A stretch of 64,000 nt of DNA. It comes from Patescibacteria group bacterium (GTDB taxonomy: Bacteria > Patescibacteriota > Minisyncoccia > Moranbacterales > UBA2206). The translations under genes were made by a program, and so were the position numbers. The stretch is taken from positions 131,016 through 195,015 of the forward strand of contig JAKLFF010000001.1 of assembly GCA_022711335.1 (NCBI GenBank). Reading direction: 5' to 3'. The notes under the pieces are model-generated. The model worked only from the letters and a program-made list of their open reading frames with translations. It had not been told where the DNA came from and searched no databases. Positions 4,600-58,462 of this stretch are shown in pieces. The number at the start of each line of letters is the position of its first letter. Positions within the stretch are counted from its first letter, which is position 1.

Positions 4600-7440
4600 A
4601 TGAAAAAGGAAATTCTAAGCAAAAAAATAATTTTCCTAAATCTTTTCATATTCTTGTTTTTTGCTTTTTCCTTTAATCTTGTTCAGGCTTCCCAAAATAT
4701 TCCTGATATTTGCGAGTCGGGAATTGAAGAAAAATTCCAATTCCTTTGTGAAAAAGATCAGCTTCTCGATCCCCGGGAACTTTTTGGCTTTGAGGAAAAA
4801 AGCGATAATAAGGCAAAAAAAGAAAGCTTTGGCGTAATGGCGGTTTCAAGTATCGAAGGCAAATCGGATGGCAGCGATGAAATCATAATCGGCGGAAATG
4901 AAGAATGGAATGAAAATAAAGTTTTTGACCATAAAATAATTACGATCGAACCGGGAGCCCAGCTGGAAATCAAAGCGGGCGTGACAATTACCCTTAAGGA
5001 TTCAATAATTAATGTTGAAGGGAAATTTATCACCAGTGGAACCAAAGAAAAAACGGTTATCATTAAATCATCCGGAGAAGAAAGCGATAGCGGATTCTCG
5101 ATCATTTCCGATTTGGACGATAAAGATGGCCAGATAAATGAAATACTGATGAAAAATACCGATATAAGCGGCAACAATAACGTATTGGGAGCTGTCATAA
5201 CTAAAAAGACCAAGCTTGATATGGAAGAATGCAGTATCCATGACAATGTGATTGGGGTAGTGATGGCGGAAAATGACTCCAATGAAAAGAAAGTCAATCG
5301 TTCTAAATTTTATGGCAACCAGATTGACGCGGTGAGCTATTACGAACTGGGCGGAGAAACTCTGGCTCCGGATTTCCGGTATAACTGGTGGGGAGAAAAC
5401 AGTTCAAAAATAGAGCAATATTGTAATGACGAATATGGATGTATTGCGTATCATGATAAAATTTTTGGACTTATCAATATAAGGCCTTGGTTTGTTTCGG
5501 AGGATTTTTTCGATCCAGTAGTGATTGTGCCGGGGATTATGGGGTCGGAAGAAAAAGATGGAGCTTGGAAAATAGATCCGGTTTATCATATTTATGATGA
5601 TCTTTATAATGAATTTATAGAAGAAGGTTTCGGTCCGGAAAAAAATTTGTTTACTTTTCCTTATGAGTGGCGAAATAGCAACCGAGATAACGCGCTCTTG
5701 CTTCGGGATAAGATTGCAGAAATTAAACAAGCCACTGGTCTTCCAAAAGTTGACGTTGTAGCACATTCCATGGGCGGTCTTCTGGCAAGAGAATATATTG
5801 AATCAGATTATTACCAGGATGATGTTAGTCAGTTGATTACGCTGGGAACGCCGCAAAACGGCGCTCCGGAGGCTTACATAAAATGGGAAGCAGGGGAATT
5901 TACCTTTTCTTTTGTAGATATGTATCTTAAACACAAATTTTCTCAGGAAGCCGAAGAGAACGGATATGACGATATTTTTCACTATATCCGCCAAAGACCG
6001 ATGACTTCTGTTCAAGAACTTCTACCCAACTACAGTTATCTTTATGAAGCTCTTGAAGATGATATACAGAGAACTTATCCAAATAACTATCCAATCAATG
6101 AGTTTTTGGATAACCTTAATTCCGAAGAAAGAAAAGAAAAACTCAAAAAAGTTTTGCTTTATAAAATTGTCGGAAATGTAGAAGACGATGAAAGCACTAT
6201 TTCCAGTTTCAGCGTGTTGGATGGACATATGGGAGAATATTGGGAACATGGCTATCCTCAAGGCTTTGAAATTCCTATTGGTGATAGAGGTATAAAATGG
6301 AAAAGGGGAGACAGAACAGTTCCATTTGAATCAGCCAGGAGTGAGAACATTCCAGCAGAAGAATCGATTGAGATAAATGCAGCTCATCGCGAATTGCCGA
6401 CCGAAGCCCAGAAAAATGTTTTAGGAATTTTGACGGCAAAAAGTCCAGGAAAAGAAACGAGGCGCAATCCTATAAAAGATCTGCTTTTTATTTCAGTTTA
6501 TTCGCCAGTTGATATACAAATAGAGAATTCTGAAGGCAAAAAAGTGGGAAAAAATTTTGCAACTGGAAACGAGATAAATGAAATAGAAGACGCCTACTAT
6601 AGCGGAGCAGGCGCGCTGAATGAGTTTCTGACCATTCCCATTTTCGGATCAGACGAAAAAGATTTCAAAATTATCACCCAAGGCACTGAAGAAGGCGTGT
6701 ATAAAATTGAGATATCCAGGATAACCGAAAGCGAAGGCTCCAGCGAAGCCAAAGAAATCAACGCGGCTATTTCAGGAACAGCCGTTCTCAATCAGGAAGA
6801 AAGCGTAGATTTGAAGGTTACTGAAAACGAAATAATAGTGGAATCAGACAAAACCCCTCCGGAAATTTCTATTGTTTCTCCCGAAGAAAACAAAACATAT
6901 CTCAACAGCGGAACCATCCCAGTGAATTATGGAATAAGCGATAATAAATCACCGAAAGAAAAAATAACCGATGAAGCATATCTGGACGAGGATATTTTAG
7001 AAAATAAAACCATAGACTTGGCTTTTTTGAATCTCGGAAAGCATAAAATAAAAATAATTGCCAAAGACGAAGCCGGAAACATCGGGCAGAAAGAAATCAG
7101 TTTCACAACAGAAACATCGGTGGATGCCATGATAAACAACACAGCTTATTACTACAGGCTGGGAATGATGAGAAAACAGGATAAAACTGTTTTGACAGCT
7201 CATCTTGAAATCATCAGGCAGCTTCAGGAAATGATAAAAATGATTGAAAAAAACAGATTTATGAAAAACAGAACCAAGGAAATGCTGGTTGCGAATCTCA
7301 AAAGACAAATCAATTTCTATCTGGACTGGCTATCATTCTACGCCAAAATGAGATCAAATCCGAATACGAAAAATGGCATTAACCCAGAAGTCGGGAAACT
7401 GCTAATTGAGAATTTCAATTTTTTGAAATATAATTTTTAA
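4600..7440 (+). CDS. Secreted multidomain protein: signal peptide, beta-helix-like N-terminal region, alpha/beta-hydrolase lipase/esterase-like domain (PGIMGS...VAHSMGGLLAREY), Ig-like/helical C-terminal region
   Basis: N-terminal signal peptide (FLFFAFSFNLVQASQ). Nucleophile-elbow pentapeptide GHSMG variant (AHSMGG) with an upstream oxyanion-like PGIMGS. Repetitive beta-strand-rich N-terminal part. 946 aa. Confidence 0.65.
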   Translation: MKKEILSKKIIFLNLFIFLFFAFSFNLVQASQNIPDICESGIEEKFQFLCEKDQLLDPRELFGFEEKSDNKAKKESFGVMAVSSIEGKSDGSDEIIIGGNEEWNENKVFDHKIITIEPGAQLEIKAGVTITLKDSIINVEGKFITSGTKEKTVIIKSSGEESDSGFSIISDLDDKDGQINEILMKNTDISGNNNVLGAVITKKTKLDMEECSIHDNVIGVVMAENDSNEKKVNRSKFYGNQIDAVSYYELGGETLAPDFRYNWWGENSSKIEQYCNDEYGCIAYHDKIFGLINIRPWFVSEDFFDPVVIVPGIMGSEEKDGAWKIDPVYHIYDDLYNEFIEEGFGPEKNLFTFPYEWRNSNRDNALLLRDKIAEIKQATGLPKVDVVAHSMGGLLAREYIESDYYQDDVSQLITLGTPQNGAPEAYIKWEAGEFTFSFVDMYLKHKFSQEAEENGYDDIFHYIRQRPMTSVQELLPNYSYLYEALEDDIQRTYPNNYPINEFLDNLNSEERKEKLKKVLLYKIVGNVEDDESTISSFSVLDGHMGEYWEHGYPQGFEIPIGDRGIKWKRGDRTVPFESARSENIPAEESIEINAAHRELPTEAQKNVLGILTAKSPGKETRRNPIKDLLFISVYSPVDIQIENSEGKKVGKNFATGNEINEIEDAYYSGAGALNEFLTIPIFGSDEKDFKIITQGTEEGVYKIEISRITESEGSSEAKEINAAISGTAVLNQEESVDLKVTENEIIVESDKTPPEISIVSPEENKTYLNSGTIPVNYGISDNKSPKEKITDEAYLDEDILENKTIDLAFLNLGKHKIKIIAKDEAGNIGQKEISFTTETSVDAMINNTAYYYRLGMMRKQDKTVLTAHLEIIRQLQEMIKMIEKNRFMKNRTKEMLVANLKRQINFYLDWLSFYAKMRSNPNTKNGINPEVGKLLIENFNFLKYNF

Positions 7441-22492: not shown

Positions 22493-23497
22493 TGTCCACA
22501 CACATTTGGCGGTTTTTCCAGAATAGCGATATTCTGGAAAATGAGTATCAATATGCCAAAAACAATTAAAGAAGAACGGCTAAGGTGGATTTTGCCTGTT
22601 ACCAGAAAGGAGGTAAGGTTAATCGATGTGACCAAGGTCTGCCCGCACAGTAAACGTAGTCTGGAAAGATGGGTAGCAGCCTACAAAGAGTACGGAGAGG
22701 AGGGATTAATCCCAAAATCAACCAGACCCAGAACAAACCCCAATGAAACACCGATAAGGATCAAGGAAAGAATTATCGAACTCAGAAAGGATAAAAAGAA
22801 ATGCGCCCTGAAACTGAAATGGCAGTTGGAAAAAGAAAACATTTTTATCCACAAAAATACCGTTCATAAAATCGTTAAAAGCGAGGGTTTGGTAAGGAAA
22901 TACAGAACCAGGAAATTAAAGTACAAATATATCAAAATTCCGTTAGCACCAGGCGAATTAGTGGAAATTGATGTTAAATATGTGCCGGAAACAGTGGGAA
23001 ACAAGCAGTATTATCAATTTACAGCCATCGACTGCGCTACCAGGTGGAGATATCTGAAAATCTATGATGATTATTCCAGTTTTAATTCCATAAGGTTTTT
23101 AAAAGAATTAATTGCTATCACTTCGTTTAGAATCAGAGCCATCAAGACAGACAATGGAAGTAATTTTACTAATCGATATACGGGCTATCTCAAGAGTTCT
23201 GACCCGATAAATCCCAGGCTTCATCCTCTTGATATTTTTTGTCAAAAATACAACATCATCCATTACCTGATTGATCCAGGAAAACCAGCTCAGAACGGTA
23301 AAGTGGAAAGAAGCCATCGCGAAGACCAGGAGAAATTCTATGAACGTGTCTCATTTAAAACATTAAGGGAGTTGGAAAAAAAGATAAAAATATGGAATGA
23401 TGAATACAACAATCTGGAACATTGTTCCTTAAATGGAAAAACACCAAATGAAATGTTAAAAATACTAACTATCTAATGCGACAAATGTCTGTGTACA
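22493..23497. mobile_element. IS481-family insertion sequence (approximate boundaries)
   Basis: Imperfect terminal inverted repeats TGTCCACACACATTTGGCG (22493-22511) and CGACAAATGTCTGTGTACA (23479-23497) match at 16 of 19 positions. They flank a single rve-type transposase gene. Length is about 1 kb, as for IS481. No clear target-site duplication was identified. Confidence 0.5.
22541..23476 (+). CDS. IS481-family DDE transposase (HTH + rve integrase core)
   Basis: Catalytic D...D...E spacing (AIDCATRW, KTDNGSNF, NGKVERSHRE). N-terminal HTH. Confidence 0.85.
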   Translation: MSINMPKTIKEERLRWILPVTRKEVRLIDVTKVCPHSKRSLERWVAAYKEYGEEGLIPKSTRPRTNPNETPIRIKERIIELRKDKKKCALKLKWQLEKENIFIHKNTVHKIVKSEGLVRKYRTRKLKYKYIKIPLAPGELVEIDVKYVPETVGNKQYYQFTAIDCATRWRYLKIYDDYSSFNSIRFLKELIAITSFRIRAIKTDNGSNFTNRYTGYLKSSDPINPRLHPLDIFCQKYNIIHYLIDPGKPAQNGKVERSHREDQEKFYERVSFKTLRELEKKIKIWNDEYNNLEHCSLNGKTPNEMLKILTI

Positions 23498-23585
23498 AAA
23501 CACTATTTATCTATTTTTTGGAAAAAGAAAAGAGGCTGTATCTCTAAAATCAGAGATACAGCCTATAAGGTCACAGGTGAAATGT

Positions 23586-24038
23586 CTACTTCTGGCGGAT
23601 GAAAACTTTTGGCCTCCCCCCGCTCGAAGTTACCTCCGAATAAGCAGCTTTTCCATTCAGTTTTGTTGCTGCTATCCAGGACCCAGAACAAATGAATGGT
23701 CCGTCATTTAAGTACATTTTTTTGACGGCGGCTATATCCGCAATCGAAAATTTTGGTCCTGAAAGCCATGGAGTTGGCACCTGCTTGTCGTCGCAAAGAA
23801 CCATTCGCTGTGTTTTGTCCCGATCAGGATGGTAAGAAATACCAATTTCCGGCACACCCTTCGAAAGAATATGCAATGTAACATCTTCCGCAGAGGTGTA
23901 GAAATTCCCTTTTGGACAAGTCATCGTTGCCACCGTCGTTGTTTGACTCTGTCCGTCCATTTCATTTTGGGCGAACGCTTGCGCGCTCAAACCTATAAAA
24001 AGAACTGCTGTCAGCACTACTGTGATACCCTTCATCAT
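23586..24038 (-). CDS. Secreted hypothetical protein (signal peptide ...LSAQAFAQ)
   Basis: 150-aa ORF with a cleavable-looking signal peptide and 3 Cys. GC noticeably above the genome background. Confidence 0.5.
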   Translation of the reverse strand: MMKGITVVLTAVLFIGLSAQAFAQNEMDGQSQTTTVATMTCPKGNFYTSAEDVTLHILSKGVPEIGISYHPDRDKTQRMVLCDDKQVPTPWLSGPKFSIADIAAVKKMYLNDGPFICSGSWIAATKLNGKAAYSEVTSSGGRPKVFIRQK

Positions 24039-24195
24039 CTTTCTCCTTAATAGTCTGCGTTTCTGTCATTGTGCCATCTATGCTATCTTCCGGTTTTTCA
24101 ACAACTGGCTAGCCTACTACATCAAAAAGATAATGTCAATAAGAAATACAAAGATAATTTAAAAACATGTATAAATTAGGTATGGTTTTAGTAAC

Positions 24196-24224
24196 TTGAC
24201 AAATTTTGATAAATAGTGTAGTAT
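24196..24224 (+). promoter_or_regulatory. Near-consensus sigma70-type promoter (TTGACA-17 nt-TAGTAT) upstream of the 24266 gene
   Basis: TTGACA at 24196-24201, a 17-nt spacer, TAGTAT at 24219-24224, about 40 nt upstream of the ATG. Confidence 0.35.
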
Positions 24225-24265
24225 GGACAGTTAACTTAGCAATTAAGAGATTTTAAGGCAATTTT

Positions 24266-24961
24266 ATGGCTCAAAATAAGGAAATTACGCTAAACTCAAT
24301 AACTCGAAACTGGCGGTTTATAGTCATAACCGTTATGCTTTTCGCTTCTCTGTCTTTTTTTGCGAGCACTATGATTACGCCGGAATATAAAAGCCAGGCG
24401 GAAATTCTTATACTCCAGAAAAATCTGGATATCGATCCTTATCGGGCCGCAAAGGCTTCGGAATATGCCGGAGAAGTTCTGGAAGGAGTTTCCGGATCTT
24501 CCGATTTTATGAACGGAATTCTGGAAAAAATCGGATCAAATGCCGGAAAGTTCGGTGAAAATCCGGAAAAGCAAATGGAAAACTGGAAAAAGGCAGTCAG
24601 TGTCACTCCTTTGGTCAACACCGGAATTGTAAAAATAACCGTACTTGATCCCAATAAAAGAGAAAATAGGAAGCTTATGGAAGGCGTTATGGCCGAGCTT
24701 CAGGAAAACGGCGTCGCCTATCATGGCAATGAAAACATTACGCTCAAAAAAATCGGCGGACCGGTATATTTTGAAAATCCGGCCTACCCGGTCATCTGGC
24801 TTAATGTTTTGGTTGCGGGAGCGGTTGGATTATTCGCTTCTATCGGGATGATTTTGCTGTTTGGACAAAATTTGGGAAGTTGGTTTACAAACAGATCAAA
24901 GATAAAATTTCAAAACGGAAATCTAAATCAGGCATTTTATCATTATCCGGAAGTGCGTTAA
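24266..24961 (+). CDS. Wzz/PCP-like polysaccharide chain-length-determinant-type protein (N- and C-terminal TM helices flanking an extracytoplasmic domain)
   Basis: Topology TM1 (FIVITVMLFASLSFF), soluble middle, TM2 (VIWLNVLVAGAVGLFASIGMILLF). Assigned by architecture only. Confidence 0.45.
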   Translation: MAQNKEITLNSITRNWRFIVITVMLFASLSFFASTMITPEYKSQAEILILQKNLDIDPYRAAKASEYAGEVLEGVSGSSDFMNGILEKIGSNAGKFGENPEKQMENWKKAVSVTPLVNTGIVKITVLDPNKRENRKLMEGVMAELQENGVAYHGNENITLKKIGGPVYFENPAYPVIWLNVLVAGAVGLFASIGMILLFGQNLGSWFTNRSKIKFQNGNLNQAFYHYPEVR

Positions 24962-24979
24962 AAAATTTGCTTTTCTTGA

Positions 24980-25006
24980 GGTTGCGTAATTGAAAATTAC
25001 GCAACC
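24980..25006 (+). terminator. Perfect 12-bp stem hairpin (GGTTGCGTAATT-GAA-AATTACGCAACC) 19 nt after the stop codon; terminator or attenuator candidate (no T-tract)
   Basis: The palindrome is read directly from the sequence. Confidence 0.35.
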
Positions 25007-25105
25007 GAAAAGAAGCGCAATTCAAGCTTCGAAGATAAAGCTACTGGCGGGCGTTCCGTCGGAGCTATTATCCAAAAACTCTCAAGGCTAAAAGGAGAAA
25101 AAGCC

Positions 25106-25459
25106 ATGAGAAAGTTGTTCTTTATTATTTTGGCAGTTGTCGGTATTTTGGTGGGCTTGAGCACTTCGGTGTTCGCCCAGGACTGTGTCGGGAGTAATCC
25201 CAACTGGACTATGATTGGTTCGCCAACTGTATTGGCTAATGGAGTCGTATTGATTCATGGTACGAATCCCCGCGTGTCCGACTGTCGAATTGAAGGAAAA
25301 TGGTTTTCCCCAAAAGGTGGCCAGCGACAGGTGGTGTTGACAAACTGCGAAGGCGTAGTGGATGTCGATGCCAGGGTCAATGCGGCCATTGAATATGCCG
25401 CACAGTTGACCGGCCCCGGTTCCTGCCAAGATCGAAACTGCGAAAGAAAAAACTTTTAA
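25106..25459 (+). CDS. Small secreted Cys-rich hypothetical protein (signal peptide ...LSTSVFAQ)
   Basis: 117 aa with 6 Cys in the mature part. AAGGAG RBS. GC-rich codon usage compared with the genome background. Confidence 0.55.
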   Translation: MRKLFFIILAVVGILVGLSTSVFAQDCVGSNPNWTMIGSPTVLANGVVLIHGTNPRVSDCRIEGKWFSPKGGQRQVVLTNCEGVVDVDARVNAAIEYAAQLTGPGSCQDRNCERKNF

Positions 25460-25734
25460 AGCAGTGCGACTTGGTAGCCAAGACCTCGTTTCCTATTCTT
25501 AATATGGCATATACATTAGTATCGCCAGATTAGAAGGACTCGGGGTCTTTTTTTTGAATATTAAGCTGTTTTATTTGTATAATAAGGCAGAAGCTTGCAA
25601 TTTTTTGATAAATATGATTAGGTTTAGATAATAAAGGAGGGGCGGTTCCCTAAAAATAAGCAGGCAAAAGCAGTCAGATACTGTTTGGGCCATTTTTTTT
25701 GTAATTTTTTCATGCCAACAAAGGAGGAAGTACC

Positions 25735-26409
25735 ATGAAAAAGTTGTTTGTTGTAGCTTTGGCAGTTTTGGCAATCGCAAGCTTGAGCGCGCAAGCGTTC
25801 GCTTCCCAGCAGGGTGTAAATGCTATTGTGGGAGTAAGTCAGGCTTATTTTAAAGACACTCCTTCTGTCAAGGATCTTGGTAATGATAATTACTCTGTTG
25901 CTGGACCAGGTGGCGTTCAGAAAATCAAATTCACCAACTCGACCATCAATAGGATGAATTTGGCTCTGAATAATCCAGGCTCCAGCGAAAGTCTCGACAC
26001 TATGTGTCCTGCTCAAGCGAACCAGCTGCGCTTGGCTATGAAAGCACCGGTTAAAAAACCAGTTACCGTAGCTCCTGTGAAGCCCTGCGAAGGTTGCAAA
26101 GAGCAGGAAGGCACTTGGAAGGGTCGGCCGCCCGCAGGAACTGTAACAGCCACTATCAAAAACGGCCAGTATGGCCAGTTTGAGATAGTGTATGATTCTA
26201 AAAAGCGATGCCCTGCAGTCCAGCAGTGGCGGAAAACCCCGAATGATTTTCCAAGCGAGCACAAAAGGCTATGGTTCAAGGACAAAACTATGGCAGAACA
26301 ATGGCTCGCCAATGCCCTGACTCCTGAACAGCTGGAGCAGAGACTGTCTGGCGCTAGCTACAAAGCCGCCAGCATCGGTTATCAAAAGTGGGTGGACCTG
26401 GCTTTATAG
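25735..26409 (+). CDS. Secreted hypothetical protein (signal peptide ...LSAQAFAS, related to that of 23586-24038)
   Basis: 224 aa. AAGGAGG RBS. 4 Cys (CPAQ, CEGC, CPAV). Confidence 0.6.
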   Translation: MKKLFVVALAVLAIASLSAQAFASQQGVNAIVGVSQAYFKDTPSVKDLGNDNYSVAGPGGVQKIKFTNSTINRMNLALNNPGSSESLDTMCPAQANQLRLAMKAPVKKPVTVAPVKPCEGCKEQEGTWKGRPPAGTVTATIKNGQYGQFEIVYDSKKRCPAVQQWRKTPNDFPSEHKRLWFKDKTMAEQWLANALTPEQLEQRLSGASYKAASIGYQKWVDLAL

Positions 26410-26430
26410 CCAATTCTGCCCCCAACCAAA

Positions 26431-26476
26431 AACCCCGATTCTTGTCTCAACGAGAGGATCGGGGTTTTGTTTATTT
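26431..26476 (+). terminator. Rho-independent terminator
   Basis: AACCCCGAT-N18-ATCGGGGTT followed by TTTTGTTTATTT. Confidence 0.6.
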
Positions 26477-26509
26477 ATATGGCAGAAGCAAGGTTGTACC
26501 TTGCTCCTT

Positions 26510-27028
26510 TTAGTTTACAATCCGAAAATCATCAATATCATCGACTTTCAGCTCGCATTCGGTATTAGCCGAAGACCAATACCAATATTCCGGTTGCGCA
26601 ACATAATTTTTCCTGACCGGATTATTGTAAATATATTGCAATTTTTGATCAAAAAAATTTTGCGATTCAATCAGTTTAGGCATGTTGGTTTTTTCCCAAA
26701 ACTCATATTTTCCATCTTTATCTAAAAATATTTTTAAAACATTTGGTTCGGTTGTTTTTATGTTCCTGTGCAATTCTTTAGATGTAAATCTTTTAAAATC
26801 ACGAATGAATCCAGAAACATCCAATGAATAAGTGATTAAATGAATATGATTGAGCATAAAAACAAAACCAAAAAGTTTTAGCCCTTTGTTATCCTGGCAA
26901 TATTTGATTGAACTGGCCAATATATTCCAGCGGTATTGTCGGTCAAAAAGATAGTACAAATTTTTAACGCTAAAAGTAAGAAAATATACGGAATTATTGA
27001 ATTGCTTCGGTACTCTTACGGATGGCAT
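26510..27028 (-). CDS. REP-associated tyrosine transposase (RAYT; IS200-like Y1 HuH transposase family)
   Basis: HuH motif LNHIHLI. C-terminal YIYNNPVRKNYVAQPEYWYWSS matches the NPV..GLV..PE.Y.WSS catalytic-Tyr region of the RAYT/Transposase_17 family. About 170 aa. Confidence 0.75.
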   Translation of the reverse strand: MPSVRVPKQFNNSVYFLTFSVKNLYYLFDRQYRWNILASSIKYCQDNKGLKLFGFVFMLNHIHLITYSLDVSGFIRDFKRFTSKELHRNIKTTEPNVLKIFLDKDGKYEFWEKTNMPKLIESQNFFDQKLQYIYNNPVRKNYVAQPEYWYWSSANTECELKVDDIDDFRIVN

Positions 27029-43147: not shown

Positions 43148-45022
43148 TCACTTTTTCAGTACGGCTAAAAAGGCTTCTCCGGGAATACTTACTCTTCCGA
43201 TGTTTTTCATCTTTTTTTTGCCTTTTTTCTGCTTTTCCAGAAGTTTTTTCTTCCTGGATACATCTCCGCCGTACAGCTTGGCTATAACATCTTTTCTGAA
43301 GGCCTTAATGGTTTCCCTGGCGATCACTTTTCCGCCAATAGCGGCTTGCAAGGCAATTTGGAAATTTTGTCTTGGAATTGCATTCTTCAGCTTTCCGACT
43401 ATCCTCTTGCCCTCACTGAAAGCCCTTTCTTTTGGTACAATCCTTGAAAAAGCATCTATTTTTTCTTCAGCTACCAGAATATCCAATTTAATGAGGTCAT
43501 AAGGCCGCCAATCCTTTATTTCATAATTTAGAGAAGCGTATCCGGACGATGCGCTTTTGATGTCATCATGGAGATTGGTGATAATATCAGTCAAGGGACA
43601 GATGAATTTCAAAATCATTCTTTCTCCATCCAGATATTCCGTATCCAAATACTGAGCTCTTGTATTTTTCATTACTTCCATAATGGCGCCAAGATAGCTT
43701 GAAGGAGAAATGATTTCTAAATTAGCATAGGGCTCGGAAATTTCTTCAATTTCCGACGGATCAGGAAGCTCCGAAGGGGAATAAATCAGCATTTCTCCGA
43801 TTTTATTTTTTAATTTTACCCTATATACCACGCTTGGAGTTGTAACAGTCGGCGTAATTTCAAATTCCCGTTCAAGCCTGGATTGAATTATTTCCAGGTG
43901 CAAAAGCCCTAAAAATCCGCACCGAAATCCCCGTCCCAATGCCAAATTGCTTTCCGGTTCGAAAGTAAACGCTGCGTCGTTCAGCTTTAATTTATCAAGC
44001 GCATCGCGCATGAAGTTATAATCGTCGCCTTCAATCGGATAAAAAGATGCATAAACCATTGGTTTAACTTCCTTATATCCCGGCAATGGAATAGCACCTC
44101 TATTCCTGTCTGAAATTGTATCCCCGACGCGGCAATCCGCAACGCTTCGGAGGCCTGTCGCAATATATCCGATTTCTCCAGCTGACAAAACCTGGCTTTT
44201 CACAAGCTGCGGCTTGAAATGGCCCACTTCAATGACATCGCACGTCGCATTTGCCGCCAGCATAGAAATTTTATCTTCAGCTTTAATTTCTCCGTCAATA
44301 ATCCGCACATGAGCTAAAACGCCCTTATAGATATCGTATTTGGAGTCGAAAATGAGAGCCTGTAGCGTCTTTTTTGCGTCTCCTCGGGGAGCTGGTATAA
44401 TTTCCACAATTTTTTCCAAAAGTTTTTCCACTCCCTGCCCTGTTTTTCCAGAAACTTCCAGGATTTCTTCTTCTTTGCATCCCAGAATATGGATTATTTC
44501 CCGTTTTGTTTTTTTTATATTGGCATTAGGAAGGTCGATTTTGTTCACTACCGGGATAATTTCCAAATTATTATCAATCGCTTGATAAAGGTTAGCCAAA
44601 GTCTGGGCTTGGACGCCCTTAGTTGCATCAACCAGCAATACCGCGCCTTCAACTGCTGCAAGAGACCGCGAAACTTCATAGCCGAAATCCACATGCCCTG
44701 GAGTATCAATTAGATTCAGAATATACTCACCACTGTCATTCCCGCGAAAGCGGGAATCCTGTTTTAAATTTTGATCATTTATATTTTGAATTTGTTTTGG
44801 ATTTAGGATTTCGGACTTCGGATTTTTCGCATGGTAAACCATGCGAACCGGCTGCATTTTGATCGTTATCCCCCGCTCCCGTTCCAAATCCATGGTATCC
44901 AGAAGCTGTTCTTTCATCTTGCGTTTTTCAACTGTTCCGGTCATTTCCAACATCCGGTCGGCTAAGGTCGATTTTCCGTGGTCAATATGAGCCAAAATTG
45001 CAAAGTTTCTTAAATTATCCAT
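43148..45022 (-). CDS. lepA: Elongation factor 4 (LepA)
   Basis: G-domain NFAILAHIDHGKSTL and DTPGHVDF. LepA-specific C-terminal domain with KLYGGDVSRKKKLLEKQKKGKKKMK. It contains an unusual 36-codon insertion (see findings). Confidence 0.9.
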   Translation of the reverse strand: MDNLRNFAILAHIDHGKSTLADRMLEMTGTVEKRKMKEQLLDTMDLERERGITIKMQPVRMVYHAKNPKSEILNPKQIQNINDQNLKQDSRFRGNDSGEYILNLIDTPGHVDFGYEVSRSLAAVEGAVLLVDATKGVQAQTLANLYQAIDNNLEIIPVVNKIDLPNANIKKTKREIIHILGCKEEEILEVSGKTGQGVEKLLEKIVEIIPAPRGDAKKTLQALIFDSKYDIYKGVLAHVRIIDGEIKAEDKISMLAANATCDVIEVGHFKPQLVKSQVLSAGEIGYIATGLRSVADCRVGDTISDRNRGAIPLPGYKEVKPMVYASFYPIEGDDYNFMRDALDKLKLNDAAFTFEPESNLALGRGFRCGFLGLLHLEIIQSRLEREFEITPTVTTPSVVYRVKLKNKIGEMLIYSPSELPDPSEIEEISEPYANLEIISPSSYLGAIMEVMKNTRAQYLDTEYLDGERMILKFICPLTDIITNLHDDIKSASSGYASLNYEIKDWRPYDLIKLDILVAEEKIDAFSRIVPKERAFSEGKRIVGKLKNAIPRQNFQIALQAAIGGKVIARETIKAFRKDVIAKLYGGDVSRKKKLLEKQKKGKKKMKNIGRVSIPGEAFLAVLKK

Positions 45023-45025
45023 GAT

Positions 45026-45847
45026 TTATTCCAACGGGCTTTTTATGTTTCTTAAAGCAGGATTTGTTACTTTGGTGTAAATCTGCGTTGTTCTAATATT
45101 AGCATGACCCAAAAGTTCCTGCACATACCGTACATCCACTCCGCTTTCCAGAAGATGAGTCGCAAAACTGTGCCGCAAACTATGAAAAGTCGCTTCTTTT
45201 TTGATCCCAGCTCTCCTTAGGGCATTTTCAAAAACTTTCTGGACGCTGCGTTCATCCAATCTGCCGCCGCGATTACTCTCAAATATGTAGTCATAGCCAT
45301 TTTTTAAAACAGCCAAATTCTTTATTAAAGGCAGCAGTTTTTCCGGAAAAATTGTTATTCTGTCCTTATTTCCTTTCGCGCCTTTGATATGAATAGTCAA
45401 TTCATCCAGATTAATATCTTTGACTCTCAGATTTATTATTTCGCTCACGCGCAAACCTGCTCCATAAGCCAATGCAATTAGCAATTTATGTTTCATGTTT
45501 CCTAAAGAGCTAATTATTTTTTCAATTTCAGCTCGAGACAGGACAATTGGCAGTTTACTGGCTGTTTTAGCGAATTTAACATCAATAGCCGAGGAATTTT
45601 TCATTACTTCGCGGTAAAAATACTTAATAGCTTGCAAATGCAAATTTATCGTTTGCGATGATTGTTTCCGGTCTTGTTTTTCCAATAGATATTTTTTAAT
45701 CAAAGCGACATCTGGCTCACGCTTTATATTCTTTGTATATTTAAAATATTCGTTTAAACAACCTAAATAACTTTCAACAGTTCGCGGACTGTAATTTCGC
45801 AGTTTTAGCTCCTGTCTTATTTTTTCCAGCAACTCTTTGAGATTCAT
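45026..45847 (-). CDS. xerC: Xer-type site-specific tyrosine recombinase
   Basis: N-terminal core-binding domain. Catalytic R...HxxR...Y region HSLRHSFATHLLESGVDVRYVQELLGHANIRTTQIYTKV. Confidence 0.85.
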   Translation of the reverse strand: MNLKELLEKIRQELKLRNYSPRTVESYLGCLNEYFKYTKNIKREPDVALIKKYLLEKQDRKQSSQTINLHLQAIKYFYREVMKNSSAIDVKFAKTASKLPIVLSRAEIEKIISSLGNMKHKLLIALAYGAGLRVSEIINLRVKDINLDELTIHIKGAKGNKDRITIFPEKLLPLIKNLAVLKNGYDYIFESNRGGRLDERSVQKVFENALRRAGIKKEATFHSLRHSFATHLLESGVDVRYVQELLGHANIRTTQIYTKVTNPALRNIKSPLE

Positions 45848-45941
45848 GGAATTTATGCTATATTTTATTCATAAATAAGTATTGTATACATTATACAAAA
45901 AGTTCGCATAACACACAACTTTTAGCTATTGTTTAACACTA

Positions 45942-45970
45942 AGTTCGCATATAAACGAGTTATGTGAAAT
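45942..45970. other. Candidate dif-like Xer recombination site (AGTTCGCATAT-AAACGAG-TTATGTGAAAT)
   Basis: The right arm TTATGTGAAAT matches the E. coli dif XerD arm TTATGTTAAAT at 10 of 11 positions. The left arm contains the CGCATA core of the XerC arm. The site is about 95 bp upstream of and divergent from the xer gene. The central region appears to be 7 nt rather than 6, so the call is tentative. Confidence 0.35.
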
Positions 45971-45997
45971 ATTTTTCAGTTTTAATATAATCCACGT

Positions 45998-46615
45998 ATG
46001 GCAGCACCAATAACACACATCGCTTTAACCGAGAAAATTTTTGATAAATTTTTTAAAGACAAAATAAGGAAAGATTTTTTTATTGGCACATCGTTTCCAG
46101 ATATTAGATATTTGAAAGTAATTGATAGAGATAAAACACATTACAAGGATTTATCTATTGTAGACTTGGGAAACGATGAATCTTTTTCGGCAGGAGTAAA
46201 ATTTCATTCAATTCTAGATCACGCTAGAGAAAAATTTATTGTTGAAAATAACACTTATTCATTATGCCCCGAATCAAAATATATTACGCAATCGTTGAAA
46301 ATTTTGGAGGACGAAATTTTTTATCAACACGTCAAGGATTGGACTATCTATACAGAGTATTTGAATGAAATTTTACAAGCGGAAAGAAATTATAGAGTTG
46401 CCGAAAAAGATTTGAAGAAATGGCACTCATTATTACAACAATATTTTCAAAAACAACCTGATGAAGATGCTGTGAAAAATTTTACACTTGGTATTGGATT
46501 CACAGAAGAAGTTACTTCTGAAATAAATGAAAATATTGCAAAAATGAAAACCAATAAAAAAATCATTAAAATAATAGAAAATTTATACAAAAATTTTGAT
46601 TTGCTGATAACGTAA
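45998..46615 (+). CDS. Hypothetical protein (205 aa), no recognisable domain
   Basis: Clean ORF with coding-like composition. It lies in an accessory segment between xer and hicBA. Confidence 0.45.
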   Translation: MAAPITHIALTEKIFDKFFKDKIRKDFFIGTSFPDIRYLKVIDRDKTHYKDLSIVDLGNDESFSAGVKFHSILDHAREKFIVENNTYSLCPESKYITQSLKILEDEIFYQHVKDWTIYTEYLNEILQAERNYRVAEKDLKKWHSLLQQYFQKQPDEDAVKNFTLGIGFTEEVTSEINENIAKMKTNKKIIKIIENLYKNFDLLIT

Positions 46616-46637
46616 CTGAAAAATACATCATATAACA

Positions 46638-46763
46638 GCGTGTATGAGGTTCAAGAAAAAGTGCGTTAATATAATTTTCAGAGGTTGCACTTTTTCTTTC
46701 ACCCAAATTTCGCCTACTCTATGAGAAAATAATAAGGAAGTCGGCGAAACTTCTCATACACGC
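46638..46763. other. Structured intergenic element: outer stem (GCGTGTATGAGG / CTCATACACGC) enclosing two hairpins (AGAAAAAGTGC-N22-GCACTTTTTCT; TTTCGCC-N28-GGCGAAA); candidate small RNA / cis-regulatory RNA / MITE
   Basis: Nested perfect or near-perfect inverted repeats were read directly. The region is 126 nt, has no ORF, and lies about 190 nt upstream of hicB. Confidence 0.3.
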
Positions 46764-46898
46764 AAACGTTGTGGCGAAAAAACTAAAAATTTCCTCTCTA
46801 TTTTTGAAAAGAATTTTTGGCAATTTTGCTCGGTTGAATAGCTTTTTAAATATAATAAAATAACTTTTAACAAAGCAATAGGTCGTCCTTTTCCCGAG

Positions 46899-46927
46899 TT
46901 TGACATATTTTTGCCATTGTGGCAGTA
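46899..46927 (+). promoter_or_regulatory. Putative hicBA promoter (TTGACA-17-CAGTAT) overlapped by palindrome TGCCATTGTGGCA (possible antitoxin operator)
   Basis: -35 consensus hexamer, weak -10. The inverted repeat TGCCA-TTG-TGGCA overlaps the -10 region, as is common for TA autoregulation. Confidence 0.3.
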
Positions 46928-46951
46928 TTACAGCATAGAAGCAATAAATTT

Positions 46952-47170
46952 ATGCGTAAAATTGACTTAAAAAACGTGGTTTGGAAAGAAGGGAAATATT
47001 ATGTTGCCCAGTGTTTGAACGTGGATGTTTCTAGTTTTGGCAAAACTAAAAAGGAAGCCTTGGTGGCGTTAGATGAAGCTTTAGAATTGTATTTTGAAGA
47101 TATTAAGGTTCCGAAAGTGACAAAAATTGAGGAACCGGAACTCATTAAAATGTCCGTTTGCCATGCCTAA
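46952..47170 (+). CDS. hicB: HicB-family antitoxin (start at internal Met, MRKIDLK...)
   Basis: About 72 aa. GKYYVAQCLNVDVSSFGKTKKEALVALDEALELYFE fits the HicB N-domain pattern (YVA.C..L.....G.T.EEA...L.EA.ELY.E). Its stop overlaps the hicA start (ATGCCTAA). Confidence 0.6.
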   Translation: MRKIDLKNVVWKEGKYYVAQCLNVDVSSFGKTKKEALVALDEALELYFEDIKVPKVTKIEEPELIKMSVCHA

Positions 47171-47381
47171 GTTGTATTCATCTTTAGAAATCATCAAAGT
47201 CCTTCAGAAAAAGGGCTTTATTTATATTTCGCAAAAAGGCAGTCATGCTAAATTCAGGAAAATCGGCAGTCCAACTTTGACCGTCATTGTTCCGGCTGGC
47301 AAAAGAGAAATCCCTTTCGGAACTTTTAGATCAATTTTGCGCCAAGCCAATTTAACCGAAGATGATTTTAGGAAAAAATAA
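47163..47381 (+). CDS. hicA: HicA-family mRNA interferase toxin (start at MPKLYSS)
   Basis: MPKLYSSLEIIKVLQKKGFIYISQKGSHAKFRK...LTVIVPAGKREIPFGTFRSILRQANL matches the HicA/YcfA-like consensus, including the GSH catalytic His. Confidence 0.7.
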   Translation: MPKLYSSLEIIKVLQKKGFIYISQKGSHAKFRKIGSPTLTVIVPAGKREIPFGTFRSILRQANLTEDDFRKK

Positions 47382-47503
47382 GTCAAACTTCGTACATTCT
47401 TAAATGTTATGCGAAAATAAATTTTTTATCTTGGCAATAATTTAGGTTTTGCGCATTGAATTACAGTAAAAATTAAATAAATTACCCTATAATAACTAAT
47501 ATT

Positions 47504-47932
47504 ATGAATGACAAAAAGAAAGAAATTCTCAAAAAGCTGAAAAATACCTATTGCCGGCTGCAGCCGTCTGGCATTGAAGGCGTGGGCGTTTTTGCAATAA
47601 GAAATATTCCGAAAGGAATAAACCCGATGATTCCACCAAAAGAAGCGCTGGATGCGCACTGGTATGAATTCAAAACTTCCGAACTTAAGGGTTTGGATAA
47701 GGGAGTAGCAAGAATGATAGATGATTTTCTGGTTATTGAAGAAGATAAAACTGTTATGGTTCCCGAACATGCCTTCAATGGAATGGATATTTCTTTTTTT
47801 GTCAATAATTCCAAGACTCCCAATATGAAAACTACCGATGATGGCTTTACTTTCGTTACACTCCGAAAAATAAAAAAAGGAGAAGAGCTGACTGTCGCAT
47901 ATGAAACGTATGACTATAAATACAAAAAATAG
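47504..47932 (+). CDS. Small bacterial SET-domain protein (putative protein-lysine methyltransferase)
   Basis: GIEGVGVFAIRNIPKG (SET N-region GxG motif), FVNNSKTPNM (degenerate NHSxxPN) and GEELTVAYETYDY (ELxxDY post-SET-like). 142 aa. The antisense 201-aa ORF in the track is rejected. Confidence 0.65.
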   Translation: MNDKKKEILKKLKNTYCRLQPSGIEGVGVFAIRNIPKGINPMIPPKEALDAHWYEFKTSELKGLDKGVARMIDDFLVIEEDKTVMVPEHAFNGMDISFFVNNSKTPNMKTTDDGFTFVTLRKIKKGEELTVAYETYDYKYKK

Positions 47933-47949
47933 CCCCTCCGTATAAAACA

Positions 47950-47975
47950 AGGCCCTGATAAAACTCCCCGCGAAG
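47950..47975. terminator. Bidirectional rho-independent terminator between the SET gene (+) and murJ (-)
   Basis: AAAACTCCC-CGCGAA-GGGAGTTTT flanked by A/T runs. The hairpin shares the CTCCC...GGGAG theme of the dispersed palindromic elements. Confidence 0.55.
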
Positions 47976-47996
47976 GGAGTTTTTATCTTCTTCGCA

Positions 47997-49643
47997 TTAT
48001 AATCCGCTGACTTCCCCAGTATCTTCAACAATATCCTTTCTTTCCCTAAATAATCTTTTTGAAAGAGATTTTTTGAAGTTCATAAATTCTTCAAGCTTGA
48101 TCGCGTGGCACACGGCGGCAAAAATCAGTACGCCGGCGGATGCCGAGACGGAAAATTGCACAAAAACGCCGATAAATGTGTCCATATCAACGGATCTTCC
48201 GACGATATATTTGAGCAGCTGGATTCCAATTCCTGCTGCAAAAGTTGCTAGAACAATTTTTAAGATGGCGCGGATTATTTTTTTGTCATCCAGATTGTCA
48301 TATCGGGTTCTGAGCCAAAACAAAAGCAGCATCATCTGGGCTATGCTAGAAAGGGAAAATGCAATCGCCAGGCTTAAAATTTGATATTTGCCAATGAGAA
48401 GCAGAACGGTTCCGATATTAACAACTTCTGAAACAATTGCGATATAAAAAGGGGTTTTTGTGTCATGCATGGCATAAAACGAACGAGCCAGAAGCGGAAT
48501 AACGCTTTGGGCAAAAAGGCTGGCAGCCAAAATCCCGAGGCACGAAAACGTAAGCTCTGTATCTTCCCAATCGAATTTTCCGGATCCCAAAATAATACGA
48601 ACCAGCTGGGCTCGGAGAAGTAGGATAAAAACGCTGGCTGGAATGACAAAAAACAAAATTTGGCGGAACGTCTGTGAAAATGAAATTATGAAATTTTGGT
48701 CATCTTTTTTGGCCGCAAAATGAGAGAGGGTCGGAAAAACAGCAATAGAAAAAGAAATGCCAAAAATTCCCAGCGGCACGCTTTCAAGGTTTTGGGCAAA
48801 ATTAAAAATTGCCAGGCTTCCCGCAGCCATGGTTGAAGCAAAAATTGTTATCACCAGAAGATTTATTTGTCCGATAGCTATTCCCAAAGTCCTTGGAATC
48901 ATTAGGCGAAAAATTTTCCTTATTTCCTTATTGGAAAAATGGCCGATAAACGACCAGGAGTGGCGATAGCCAAGATTTCTGGCAGCCGGATATTGGACTA
49001 TCACATGCAAAAACGCCCCAAAAACCACCCCCCAAGCCAATCCTATCGGACCCATAAACCTGACAAAAACCAAAACACCGACAATAATGCCAAAATTATA
49101 AAATATGGGTGCCAAAGAATATATCAGAAATCTTTTAAACGAGGTTAAAATTCCCCCGAAAATTCCGGAAATTCCCAAAAACAGCGGACTTAAAAACATT
49201 ATTCTCGTAAAAATAACGACTTGAGAAATTTTTTCGGGCGAGAAGCCGGGAGTAATCATTTTCATAATCCACGGCGCAAACAGCGCGAATATTAACGACA
49301 AAACAGATATAAAAACAATTGCCAGATTCATTATTCCCCCAGCCAATTCCCAAGCCTCGCCTTCTTTTTCATGGCTGATAAGCGACGTAAAAACCGGAAT
49401 GAAAGCGGCGCTAAGCGCTCCGAGAATGAGAAGATTGTAAATCAGATCCGGAACTCGAAAAGCCGCGTAATAAACATCCAAAACATCTCCGGCACCGAAA
49501 GTTGAAGCTAAAAAACGATCTCGAAAAAGCCCAAGCAGACGACTGGCTAGCCCTGACAAAGTTATAACAAATGCCGCTGAAACAACCGATCGGGAGGGCG
49601 AGGAATTCAGGATTATTTTATTGTTTAGAAATTTTTTTATCAT
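47997..49643 (-). CDS. murJ: Lipid II flippase MurJ (MviN)
   Basis: 14-TM MOP-superfamily protein. N-terminal RLLGLFRDRFLASTFGAGDVLDVYYAAFRVPDLIYNLLILGALSAAFIPVF is the MurJ signature region. Confidence 0.9.
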   Translation of the reverse strand: MIKKFLNNKIILNSSPSRSVVSAAFVITLSGLASRLLGLFRDRFLASTFGAGDVLDVYYAAFRVPDLIYNLLILGALSAAFIPVFTSLISHEKEGEAWELAGGIMNLAIVFISVLSLIFALFAPWIMKMITPGFSPEKISQVVIFTRIMFLSPLFLGISGIFGGILTSFKRFLIYSLAPIFYNFGIIVGVLVFVRFMGPIGLAWGVVFGAFLHVIVQYPAARNLGYRHSWSFIGHFSNKEIRKIFRLMIPRTLGIAIGQINLLVITIFASTMAAGSLAIFNFAQNLESVPLGIFGISFSIAVFPTLSHFAAKKDDQNFIISFSQTFRQILFFVIPASVFILLLRAQLVRIILGSGKFDWEDTELTFSCLGILAASLFAQSVIPLLARSFYAMHDTKTPFYIAIVSEVVNIGTVLLLIGKYQILSLAIAFSLSSIAQMMLLLFWLRTRYDNLDDKKIIRAILKIVLATFAAGIGIQLLKYIVGRSVDMDTFIGVFVQFSVSASAGVLIFAAVCHAIKLEEFMNFKKSLSKRLFRERKDIVEDTGEVSGL

Positions 49644-58012: not shown

Positions 58013-58124
58013 GTTTTTCTCTATAAATTACGAATAAGCTAGCGCTCTACGAACATACAAACTACGAATTGAATAATTCATATATTCGTAAAAATTTATA
58101 ATTCGTAGAGATTTCAGATATTTA

Positions 58125-58462
58125 TCAAGGCAAATCTATAAGCCGGATTCTGTCGGGAACGATCATTTATCTTGTCTCGACGTTACCGTCGGGATCGCGC
58201 GGCATTTCCCGTTTTTAGCTAAAAAAACAGGACACAGCCTTGCACTCACGCAGGGATTTGGCCGTTTCACCTTCGATGTTTCCATTGAAGCTTATCCCTT
58301 GCGGGATACTTTTATTATCTCTAATAAAAGCGTCTCTGTTCGCACCCCTCGAGTTGCCCCGGATGGGAATTACCCACTACGCGTGCCAATGCACAGCACT
58401 GGCCGAGTGTCCGGACTTTCCTATCCATAATAAATTACGGATTGATCGCTCAATTTGCCTTG
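58125..58462 (-). ncRNA. rnpB: RNase P RNA (bacterial type A-like)
   Basis: Minus-strand read: P1 CAAGGCAAAT...ATTTGCCTTG pairing at the ends. P4 5' strand GGAAAGTCCGGAC. GGTGAAA motif. P4 3' strand ACAGAATCCGGCTTA. GC-rich island of about 338 nt with no credible ORF. Confidence 0.85.

Follow-up and report, generated by a model that had tools for sequence, protein, structure and literature searches.

Integrons are defined by an integron integrase (IntI) with an extra domain and by folded attC sites, and their primary site attI1 has accessory direct repeats (DR1 and DR2) comparable to the repeats beside the core site described here. CTX phage recombines through an attP folded from single-stranded DNA, with one strand exchange that replication then resolves. 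The pdif sites found on plasmids alternate in orientation and are not known to stand beside xer or to have a hairpin partner or a head site. An origin of integrons from Xer-like recombinases is assumed but, to our knowledge, undocumented. The locus considered here lies in a 64,000-nucleotide stretch of contig JAKLFF010000001.1 from a Patescibacteria group bacterium of the order Moranbacterales (the window, whose numbering is used throughout). There, a dif-like site at 45942-45970 adjoins the gene of a XerA-type tyrosine recombinase (xer). We propose, with a probability of about 80%, that this site is the primary attI-like site of an integron-like cassette platform belonging to the adjacent recombinase.

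Archaeal integrons have been reported by Ghaly et al. (2022; PMC9668308), and the described integrons of Bacteria and Archaea all have an IntI that carries the additional domain (PMC9668308; PMC9024848). In the literature searched, whose coverage is incomplete, no description was found of integrons or cassette arrays in the Candidate Phyla Radiation (CPR) or of a Xer-type integron. A group named "Cand" has been set up for Xer-related recombinases from candidate phyla, which are suggested to stand in for Xer (PMC8138268), and the recombinase of the window is probably a putative member of this subgroup.

The core site and its insertion point

The core site consists of two 11-bp arms, symmetric at 8 of 11 positions, around a 7-bp spacer (11-7-11), and lies 95 bp from the xer ATG on its upstream side. 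Its right arm matches the Escherichia coli XerD arm TTATGTTAAAT at 10 of 11 positions and its left arm matches GGTGCGCATAA at 8 of 11; the initial annotation had placed the 29-mer correctly, and its own arm comparisons with E. coli dif also hold. With up to three mismatches, the full pattern occurs once in the window against 0.06 occurrences expected, and either half-site alone is not above chance there. The main support for the site comes from its conservation among relatives. Among 87 related loci, gathered at a recombinase identity of at least 55%, the core site is kept 92-95 bp upstream of the xer ATG in 56, and in most of the others the contig upstream of xer is too short to reveal it. 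A weight matrix built from the sites of 34 relatives scores the core site at 47 bits and the runner-up in the 64 kb at 6 bits, and the proposed search for further copies of the 29-mer found none within the window. In 51 aligned relatives, the left arm and spacer are near-constant (AAGTTCGCATAT-AAACGAG), while the distal (right) arm retains only TTR...GAAAT and varies in its middle.

The core left arm also has a direct accessory copy, an exact 11-nt repeat of 45941-45951. In nearly all relatives this copy keeps a constant distance of 41 nt to the core left arm (the two stand at positions 56 and 97 from the ATG), which bears out the left-arm copy that had been suspected near 45900. The distal half-copy that had been taken as the far boundary of the segment (CTTCGCATTATAA) fared differently: it lies at 47990-48002 rather than 47981-47993, it overlaps the murJ stop, and its TTCGCAT motif occurs 17 times against 17.3 expected, so that a boundary at this chance-level sequence is unsupported.

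The insertion point is revealed by variation between strains. In L162, a contig from the same species with a 100% identical Xer, a clean 889-bp insertion relative to the window lies exactly at G/TTA, the slash marking the crossover. Its left junction reads ...CGCATATAAACGAG/TTAGGCGAAAT, that is, ...AAACGAG/TTAGGCGAAAT, and its right junction reads ...CCGAAACG/TTATGTGAAAT, after which L162 is colinear with the window from 45960 on. The homology of near-identical strains ends at the G/TT crossover in four groups. For L126/127/131/132, and for L162 compared with the window, the attI site is where homology breaks off, with alternative first cassettes in sister strains; for L094/095 and L138/139 it breaks off at an internal cassette boundary. 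Synteny with lepA downstream of xer is kept in many lineages. A comparison of relatives across the segment, as the initial annotation had advised, found the gene content distal to the site hypervariable, and the ORF205, hicBA, SET and murJ genes of the window were not found there. In addition, contigs break here: of the 50 that extend 3 kb or more downstream of xer, 16 stop no more than 300 nt upstream of the gene, among them contigs of 245, 104, and 69 kb, and the converse was seen in none of 18. An array distal to the site explains why metagenomic contigs break just upstream of xer. The initial annotation had offered a Xer-mobilised islet as one of two readings, and this is strongly supported, more specifically as an integron-like cassette array inserted at G/TT.

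Cassette arrays and cassette ends

In the related loci, a regular-expression search for GTTR-N3-4-GAAAW in 175 kb distal to xer gave 134 matches in one orientation against 23 in the other, and 13 and 33 in 331 kb downstream of xer. A weight matrix for the cassette end, trained on the same loci, gave 71 matches distal to xer in one orientation, none in the opposite orientation, and one in the 331 kb downstream. The internal boundaries share AAC-TTC[GAT][CG]AT-N6-NNACG/TTRNNNGAAAT. Arrays hold 1-7 units with a median unit of ~0.8 kb (61 unique units), and the largest open reading frame (ORF) points away from xer in 42 of the 61 and towards it in 8, with no ORF of at least 50 aa in the other 11. 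The cargo is accessory and includes D12 methyltransferases, a BpuJI-type endonuclease, HEPN, NUDIX, radical SAM and SET (L159) proteins, transporters, and an IS110 transposase. On a 1.27-Mb Moraniibacteriota contig (L161:5038-9230), a 4.2-kb multi-gene defence unit lies between two cassette-end sites. It encodes an ApaLI-type endonuclease, an N6/N4 methyltransferase, a 170-aa ORF and a SMODS/AGS_C protein (cyclic oligonucleotide-based antiphage signalling system-like, CBASS-like), all directed away from xer. Cassettes common to different lineages stand at other array positions, with a nucleotide identity above that of xer; for example, an alignment of L102 cassette 2 with L131 cassette 1 that starts at base 1 and spans 951 nt shows 83% identity, compared with 72% for their xer genes. 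Beyond Moranbacteria, a Peregrinibacteria contig (L004) has two copies of an attC-like site upstream of xer (58% identical). A profile search of genome contigs with the family alignment returned mostly distant homologues (Bacteroidota, DPANN), and a crude repeat search found no obvious arrays next to five of the distant homologues (L011, L012, L017, L029, L034; DPANN, Bacteroidota, Ignavibacteriota).

A partner with near-perfect complementarity to the 10 nt after AACTT was found 40-195 nt upstream in 34 of 46 unique sites, always preceded by nnTAAC-A-N. This partner was identified by a complementarity search in which shuffled controls averaged 7.5 of 12 matches. The terminal R box is separated from the helix by an asymmetric loop, and for this reason minimum-free-energy folding did not locate the AAC/GTT closing pairs. 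The alignment was built from sites chosen beforehand for their complementarity; in it, 97.8% of the L helix is paired, both sides change in 9 of 12 pairs, and sliding the partner columns abolishes the signal. No extrahelical bases were seen in the L box. An independent test, non-circular with respect to this selection, compared the reverse complement of the 8-nt R'' box with the first 8 nt of the same cassette, 0.4-3.9 kb away. The two agree in 18 of 28 cases, against a mean of 2.5 and a maximum of 10 in 20,000 shuffles, and R'' matches the physically adjacent R' less well than its own cassette start. This pattern marks a circular cassette that opens between G and TT, as integron cassettes do. 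Comparison shows the crossover point, the arrays and their orientation, the turnover of cassettes between strains, and the circular-cassette logic.

The same architecture was observed in viral contigs from IMG/VR (L168-L175), where 7 of 8 exact-pattern matches have the full R''-L''...L'-R' arrangement (for example, L168:4520-4740, L171:3222-3648, and L175:10040-10250). R'' and R' agree at 8 of 8 positions in L168 and in the second L171 site, as expected of an unrecombined episomal site. Neighbouring genes encode a terminase (L171), a DnaB helicase and a methyltransferase (L175), the element's own integrase (L174), and replication proteins. Phages of these hosts may use the site as attP or carry cassettes.

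Within the window, two units are bounded by G/TT sites and a third probably follows (Table 1). The cassette-end matrix has just two matches over 128 kb (both strands), both in this segment, and the crossovers that they define, 46768/46769 and 47406/47407, are absent from the initial annotation. ORF205 of cassette 1 has no match in Pfam or NCBIfam. The reverse complement of its R'' (GTTATATG) agrees with the cassette start GTTATGTG at 7 of 8 positions and with the adjacent R' at 4 of 8. Its attC-like site folds as single-stranded DNA on either strand (z = -5.5 and -6.2) and belongs to the covarying site family. The "structured RNA-like element" reported earlier is this same site, and no Rfam family covers the hairpin at 46629-46780. 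Cassette 2 carries hicBA, and no R'' or L'' partner was found upstream of its end site. The SET-domain unit is probably a third cassette, and a SET-domain ORF is also cassette cargo in L159. The predicted gene products of the segment (a Phage_integrase/SAM recombinase, HicA, a HicB-like DUF7387 protein, a SET protein, and MurJ) were all borne out.

Table 1. Positions of the recombinase gene, recombination sites and cassettes in the window
Feature	Positions	Strand	Details
xer, 273-aa XerA-like tyrosine recombinase, presumed integrase of the array	45026..45847	-	Pfam Phage_integrase 5e-45 and SAM-like N-terminal domain
Outward promoter-like element, TTGAGA-16-TATATT with TG extension	45837..45864	+	From the xer start into the array; promoter scan 10/12 plus TG
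Accessory arm-type repeat AAGTTCGCATAAC (AAGTTCGCATAA at 45900-45911)	45900..45912	+	Direct copy of the core left arm
Proposed attI-like (dif-like) core site AGTTCGCATAT-AAACGAG-TTATGTGAAAT	45942-45970	+	Crossover between 45959 (G) and 45960 (T)
Cassette 1: ORF205 (45998-46615) and attC-like site	45960..46768	+	Bounded by G/TT sites
attC-like site of cassette 1	46629-46780	+	28 bits by weight matrix (46744-46779)
Boxes R'' CATATAAC, L'' CGTGTATGAG, L' CTCATACACG of this site	46629-36, 46639-48, 46753-62		
Spacer CAAAC, crossover G/TT and R' arm TTGTGGCGAAAA of this site	46768/69 (G/TT), 46769-80 (R')		
Cassette 2: hicB-like gene (46952-47170) and hicA (47163-47381)	46769..47406	+	HicA_toxin 9e-16, DUF7387 4e-06; G/TT sites at 46768 and 47406
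Simple hairpin-less cassette-end site AACTTCGTACATTCTTAAATG/TTATGCGAAAAT	47386..47418	+	Crossover 47406/47407; 17.6 bits (47382-47417)
Probable cassette 3: SET-domain gene (47504-47932) and terminator-like hairpin (47960-47983)	47407..47996	+	SET 2.7e-09

Several further observations concern the arrays and the rest of the window. In L119, also in L120, a ~190-nt repeat without an ORF stands at cassette boundaries (L119:2113-2307, 3739-3943, 4879-5074, and 5701-5910). It starts with TTATGCCGAAATCGCTCGC and ends with CCGAAGCCA/TT, with A/TT rather than G/TT at the junction, and looks like a non-coding "empty cassette" or an array parasite resembling a miniature inverted-repeat transposable element (MITE). 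Duplicated fragments like the 3' end of a tRNA (GGTTCAATACCCC...) lie within the array region at L119:1513-1609 and 4164-4260, which points to the insertion of a further integrative element that uses a tRNA-type att site. In the window itself, ARAGORN found no tRNA genes in the 64 kb, and the only Rfam match is a bacterial class A RNase P RNA at 58123-58461 on the minus strand (139 bits). The lepA gene (43148-45022) has an in-frame insertion in its GTPase domain (...SRFRGNDSGE...) at 44736-44830, around the palindrome cattcccgcgaaagcgggaatc, and the lepA of L159 has a larger interruption at the same point. The insertion looks like a palindromic element within the coding region.

Recombinase, proposed mechanism, and rival explanations

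The recombinase scores 234.6 against the NCBIfam model NF040815 (recomb_XerA_Arch), over its cut-off of 220; the Prokaryotic Genome Annotation Pipeline (PGAP) label for this model is "site-specific tyrosine recombinase/integron integrase". The XerC and XerD models match at E values of 1e-55 to 1e-57 with scores under their cut-offs. The nearest solved structures are Pyrococcus abyssi XerA (4a8e; 7e-46, colinear) and Vibrio cholerae IntI4 (2a3v, VchIntIA; 2e-45). Homologues 70-82% identical are abundant across Moranbacteria, and in the same loci Xer is 65-80% identical compared with 56-74% for LepA. Xer is thus about as conserved as LepA, which suggests housekeeping constraint. No second tyrosine recombinase was found in the window; a 27-aa tyrosine-recombinase match at 25.2 kb (E = 0.2) is a chance hit. 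The outward promoter-like element next to xer may be an analogue of Pc, judging from its sequence and position, and a TGnTAnAAT motif 8-18 nt from the xer ATG is kept in most relatives. A putative xer promoter lies on the minus strand at 45890-45918, with TTGTGT (reverse complement of 45913-45918), a 17-nt spacer and TATAAT (reverse complement of 45890-45895), and relatives have the same layout upstream of xer (TTGTAT-17-TATAAT). The accessory arm sits in the spacer of this putative promoter, so the recombinase may repress its own gene.

In the proposed mechanism, each cassette begins with TTRNNNGAAAT, ends with AAC-TTCNNAT-N6-NNACG, and usually carries one ORF pointing away from xer. About 70% of cassettes have an upstream inverted partner (nnTAAC-A-N-10 nt) that allows a two-box, attC-like hairpin (R''-L''...L'-R') to form; this hairpin would present L'-spacer-R' as a pseudo-duplex while the cassette is single-stranded. 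Insertion and excision would proceed through an exchange of strands where the spacer meets the right arm, between G and TT. An exchange at this point means that an incoming cassette brings its own right arm to attI and passes the old one to its 3' end. By analogy with the known geometry of integrons and other tyrosine-recombinase systems, the right-arm monomer would exchange the bottom strand at the border of its arm. As in integrons and CTX phage, the substrate would be a folded single strand and the product would be resolved by replication. The attI spacer (AAACGAG) and the cassette spacers (e.g., CCGAAACG) are unlike in length and sequence, which makes a single exchange followed by replication likelier than two staggered exchanges. 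The conserved outward promoter beside xer would express the array, and the accessory arm copy 41 bp away may aid assembly or autoregulation.

Judged by the features that define integrons, the locus has a primary site that adjoins the integrase gene, diverges from it, and takes insertions; it has cassettes that end in foldable R''-L''...L'-R' repeats; and it has a crossover at G/TT of the R' core, with R'' pairing to its own 5' cassette start. Several points weigh against an integron-like platform. The enzyme is not an IntI-clade integrase with the additional domain at patch III: it scores 214.6 against the integron integrase model TIGR02249, under the cut-off of 265 and in two pieces, and IntI4 residues ~213-238, the IntI-specific additional domain, have no counterpart in the alignment. 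In known integrons this domain is required for attC recombination, according to the passage of PMC9668308 that cites Messier and Roy (2001). Catalysis of cassette recombination by the neighbouring Xer is inferred from adjacency only. Some 28% of cassette-end sites, including the hicBA site and that of the mobile 889-bp cassette, have no hairpin partner, so folding is not obligatory and double-stranded recombination may operate. A search for a 3' recombination site of the SET unit found none recognisable. Cassette 1 bears its own promoter-like element in the promoter scan, so not all cassettes are promoterless. The relatives are metagenomic contigs throughout, and the training of the cassette-end matrix on the same loci and the pre-selection behind the covariation alignment, given above, belong here as well.

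The best surviving rival, which we nevertheless regard as unlikely, is a tandem array of the kind formed by integrative elements exploiting Xer (IMEX). Small mobile elements, perhaps phages, would then enter a host dif by double-strand recombination through the host Xer, and the hairpins would be incidental, for instance terminators. The units have no recombinase of their own and integrate at a host Xer site through a dif-like site, and each cassette-end site is a full two-arm core (left arm AACTTCNNAT, a ~9-bp spacer, and right arm TTRNNNGAAAT). The absence of a hairpin partner from ~28% of sites, one of them in a polymorphic cassette, also suits this explanation, as do the attC-like sites with intact R'' and R' beside terminase, helicase, and replication genes in viral contigs. 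However, the difference between attI and cassette spacers is hard to fit to two staggered strand exchanges, and covariation between cassette families is seen in both the L helix (10-11 bp) and the R box (8 nt), which points to selection on the folded form. Moreover, most units consist of one promoter-poor ORF and carry no genes for replication or mobilisation; with a median of 0.8 kb and a single accessory ORF, they are not autonomous mobile entities.

A second rival, far less probable still, holds that the site is simply the dif at which a lone Xer recombinase resolves chromosome dimers, placed at the terminus as difSL and difH are, with ordinary chromosomal genes as neighbours. As in such systems, a Xer-family tyrosine recombinase goes with a site of ~28-31 bp that has inverted 11-bp arms (11-7-11), and the gene stands next to the site; to this extent the earlier comparison with XerS/difSL and XerH/difH holds. 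The site is also the sole one of its kind in a window that contains a skew switch, and the conservation of Xer relative to LepA is what a housekeeping recombinase would show. From position 1 to ~26 kb the GC skew is positive, and over the remainder of the 64 kb it is negative, a pattern that depends little on gene strand. The change at ~26 kb is a terminus-type switch 20 kb from the core site, beside transposase genes, and dnaA is not present in the window. No other dif-like site was found in the 64 kb spanning the switch, where the best match to the E. coli/Bacillus subtilis consensus is 19 of 28. Thus the core site is probably within the terminus region, but it is not at the switch. No reversal of the skew is seen across the locus, either in the window or in L161, and a comparison of 15 loci with long flanks showed no sign change at the site. 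A plain dif further leaves unexplained the G/TT polymorphism, the oriented arrays of secondary sites, the complementarity of R'' to the cassette start, and the contig breaks. The terminus dif put forward in the initial annotation is therefore refuted as a sole explanation by the cassette polymorphism at G/TT and the oriented arrays. The region of the skew change (22541-27028) itself contains an rve-family transposase gene (22541-23476), an IS200-like Y1 transposase gene (26510-27028), and two small secreted-protein-like ORFs, and its G+C content is locally raised (0.44-0.45).

The weakest rival takes the repeats for regulatory or MITE-like elements or repetitive extragenic palindromes (REPs) unrelated to the recombinase, such as operators, terminators, or sequences on which the IS200-like transposase at 26.5 kb acts. 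It draws on the REP- or terminator-like look of a hairpin with flanking conserved motifs, the Y1 transposase gene in the window, and the 190-nt ORF-less repeat in L119 and L120, and it is very unlikely in view of the one-sided orientation of the sites distal to xer and their near-absence downstream, the match of the site arms to the conserved core beside xer, and the insertion or deletion of whole units with junctions at G/TT.

An integron-like platform is compatible with a second role of its primary site, and it is plausible that the core site may additionally serve as the chromosome dif. More speculatively, and on balance doubtfully, one housekeeping Xer and an adjacent site that is both dif and attI would together form a "Xer-integron" without the IntI domain, either a living relative of the integron ancestor or an independent reinvention, with phages carrying the folded site as attP.

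Comparison with known systems

If the proposed platform is real, the domain requirement for structure-specific cassette recombination becomes directly testable, the locus is a candidate intermediate between dif/Xer and attI/IntI, and the platform would be a main route of gene flux in reduced CPR genomes, for defence, toxin-antitoxin, and restriction-modification genes alike.

Among systems built on Xer-type sites, the pdif modules of Acinetobacter plasmids, in which XerC/D sites flank resistance modules, share with this locus small modules, Xer-type bounds, and varied contexts. IMEX such as the CTX, VGJ, and TLC phages at V. cholerae dif1 and the gonococcal genetic island resemble it in the tandem pile-up of recombinase-less units at a dif-like site, and phage-like contigs bear the cassette-end site. 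Unlike IMEX, the units here are mostly ~0.8-kb, one-ORF cassettes with a family-wide structured end rather than phages or islands, and a clade of phylum level has kept the arrangement. The single-recombinase systems XerS/difSL of streptococci, XerH/difH of Helicobacter and Campylobacter, and archaeal XerA/dif likewise combine one Xer-family recombinase with a ~29-bp site of two inverted 11-bp arms. In XerS and XerH the site is also immediately upstream of the gene, and the nearest structure to the recombinase described here is that of P. abyssi XerA. In contrast to these systems, the distal arm here varies, with secondary sites and cassettes arrayed in one orientation beyond it; the spacer measures 7 bp, and the site is 20 kb from the skew switch.

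With integrons, the differences lie in the enzyme, the details of the sites, and the host. The 273-aa enzyme here is XerA-like, lacks the IntI domain, and falls under the TIGR02249 cut-off. The core is GTTRYRY or GTTANNN followed by a conserved GAAAT (a full 11-bp arm), not GTTRRRY alone. The R''-L'' spacer is 1-2 nt, whereas that on the other strand is 3-5 nt; the L box pairs perfectly over 10-11 bp, and extrahelical bases are not evident in it; and ~28% of sites are hairpin-less. The hosts are CPR bacteria (Moranbacteria and Peregrinibacteria). In its overall organization, the locus is like the sedentary chromosomal integrons (the Vibrio superintegron and archaeal integrons). A divergent recombinase gene stands at a primary site, and co-oriented, mostly one-ORF cassettes end in an imperfect inverted repeat of the form R''-L''...L'-R'. 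The G/TT crossover leads to R' being swapped between neighbours, attC-type sites are alike within a lineage, and the cargo includes toxin-antitoxin and defence genes.

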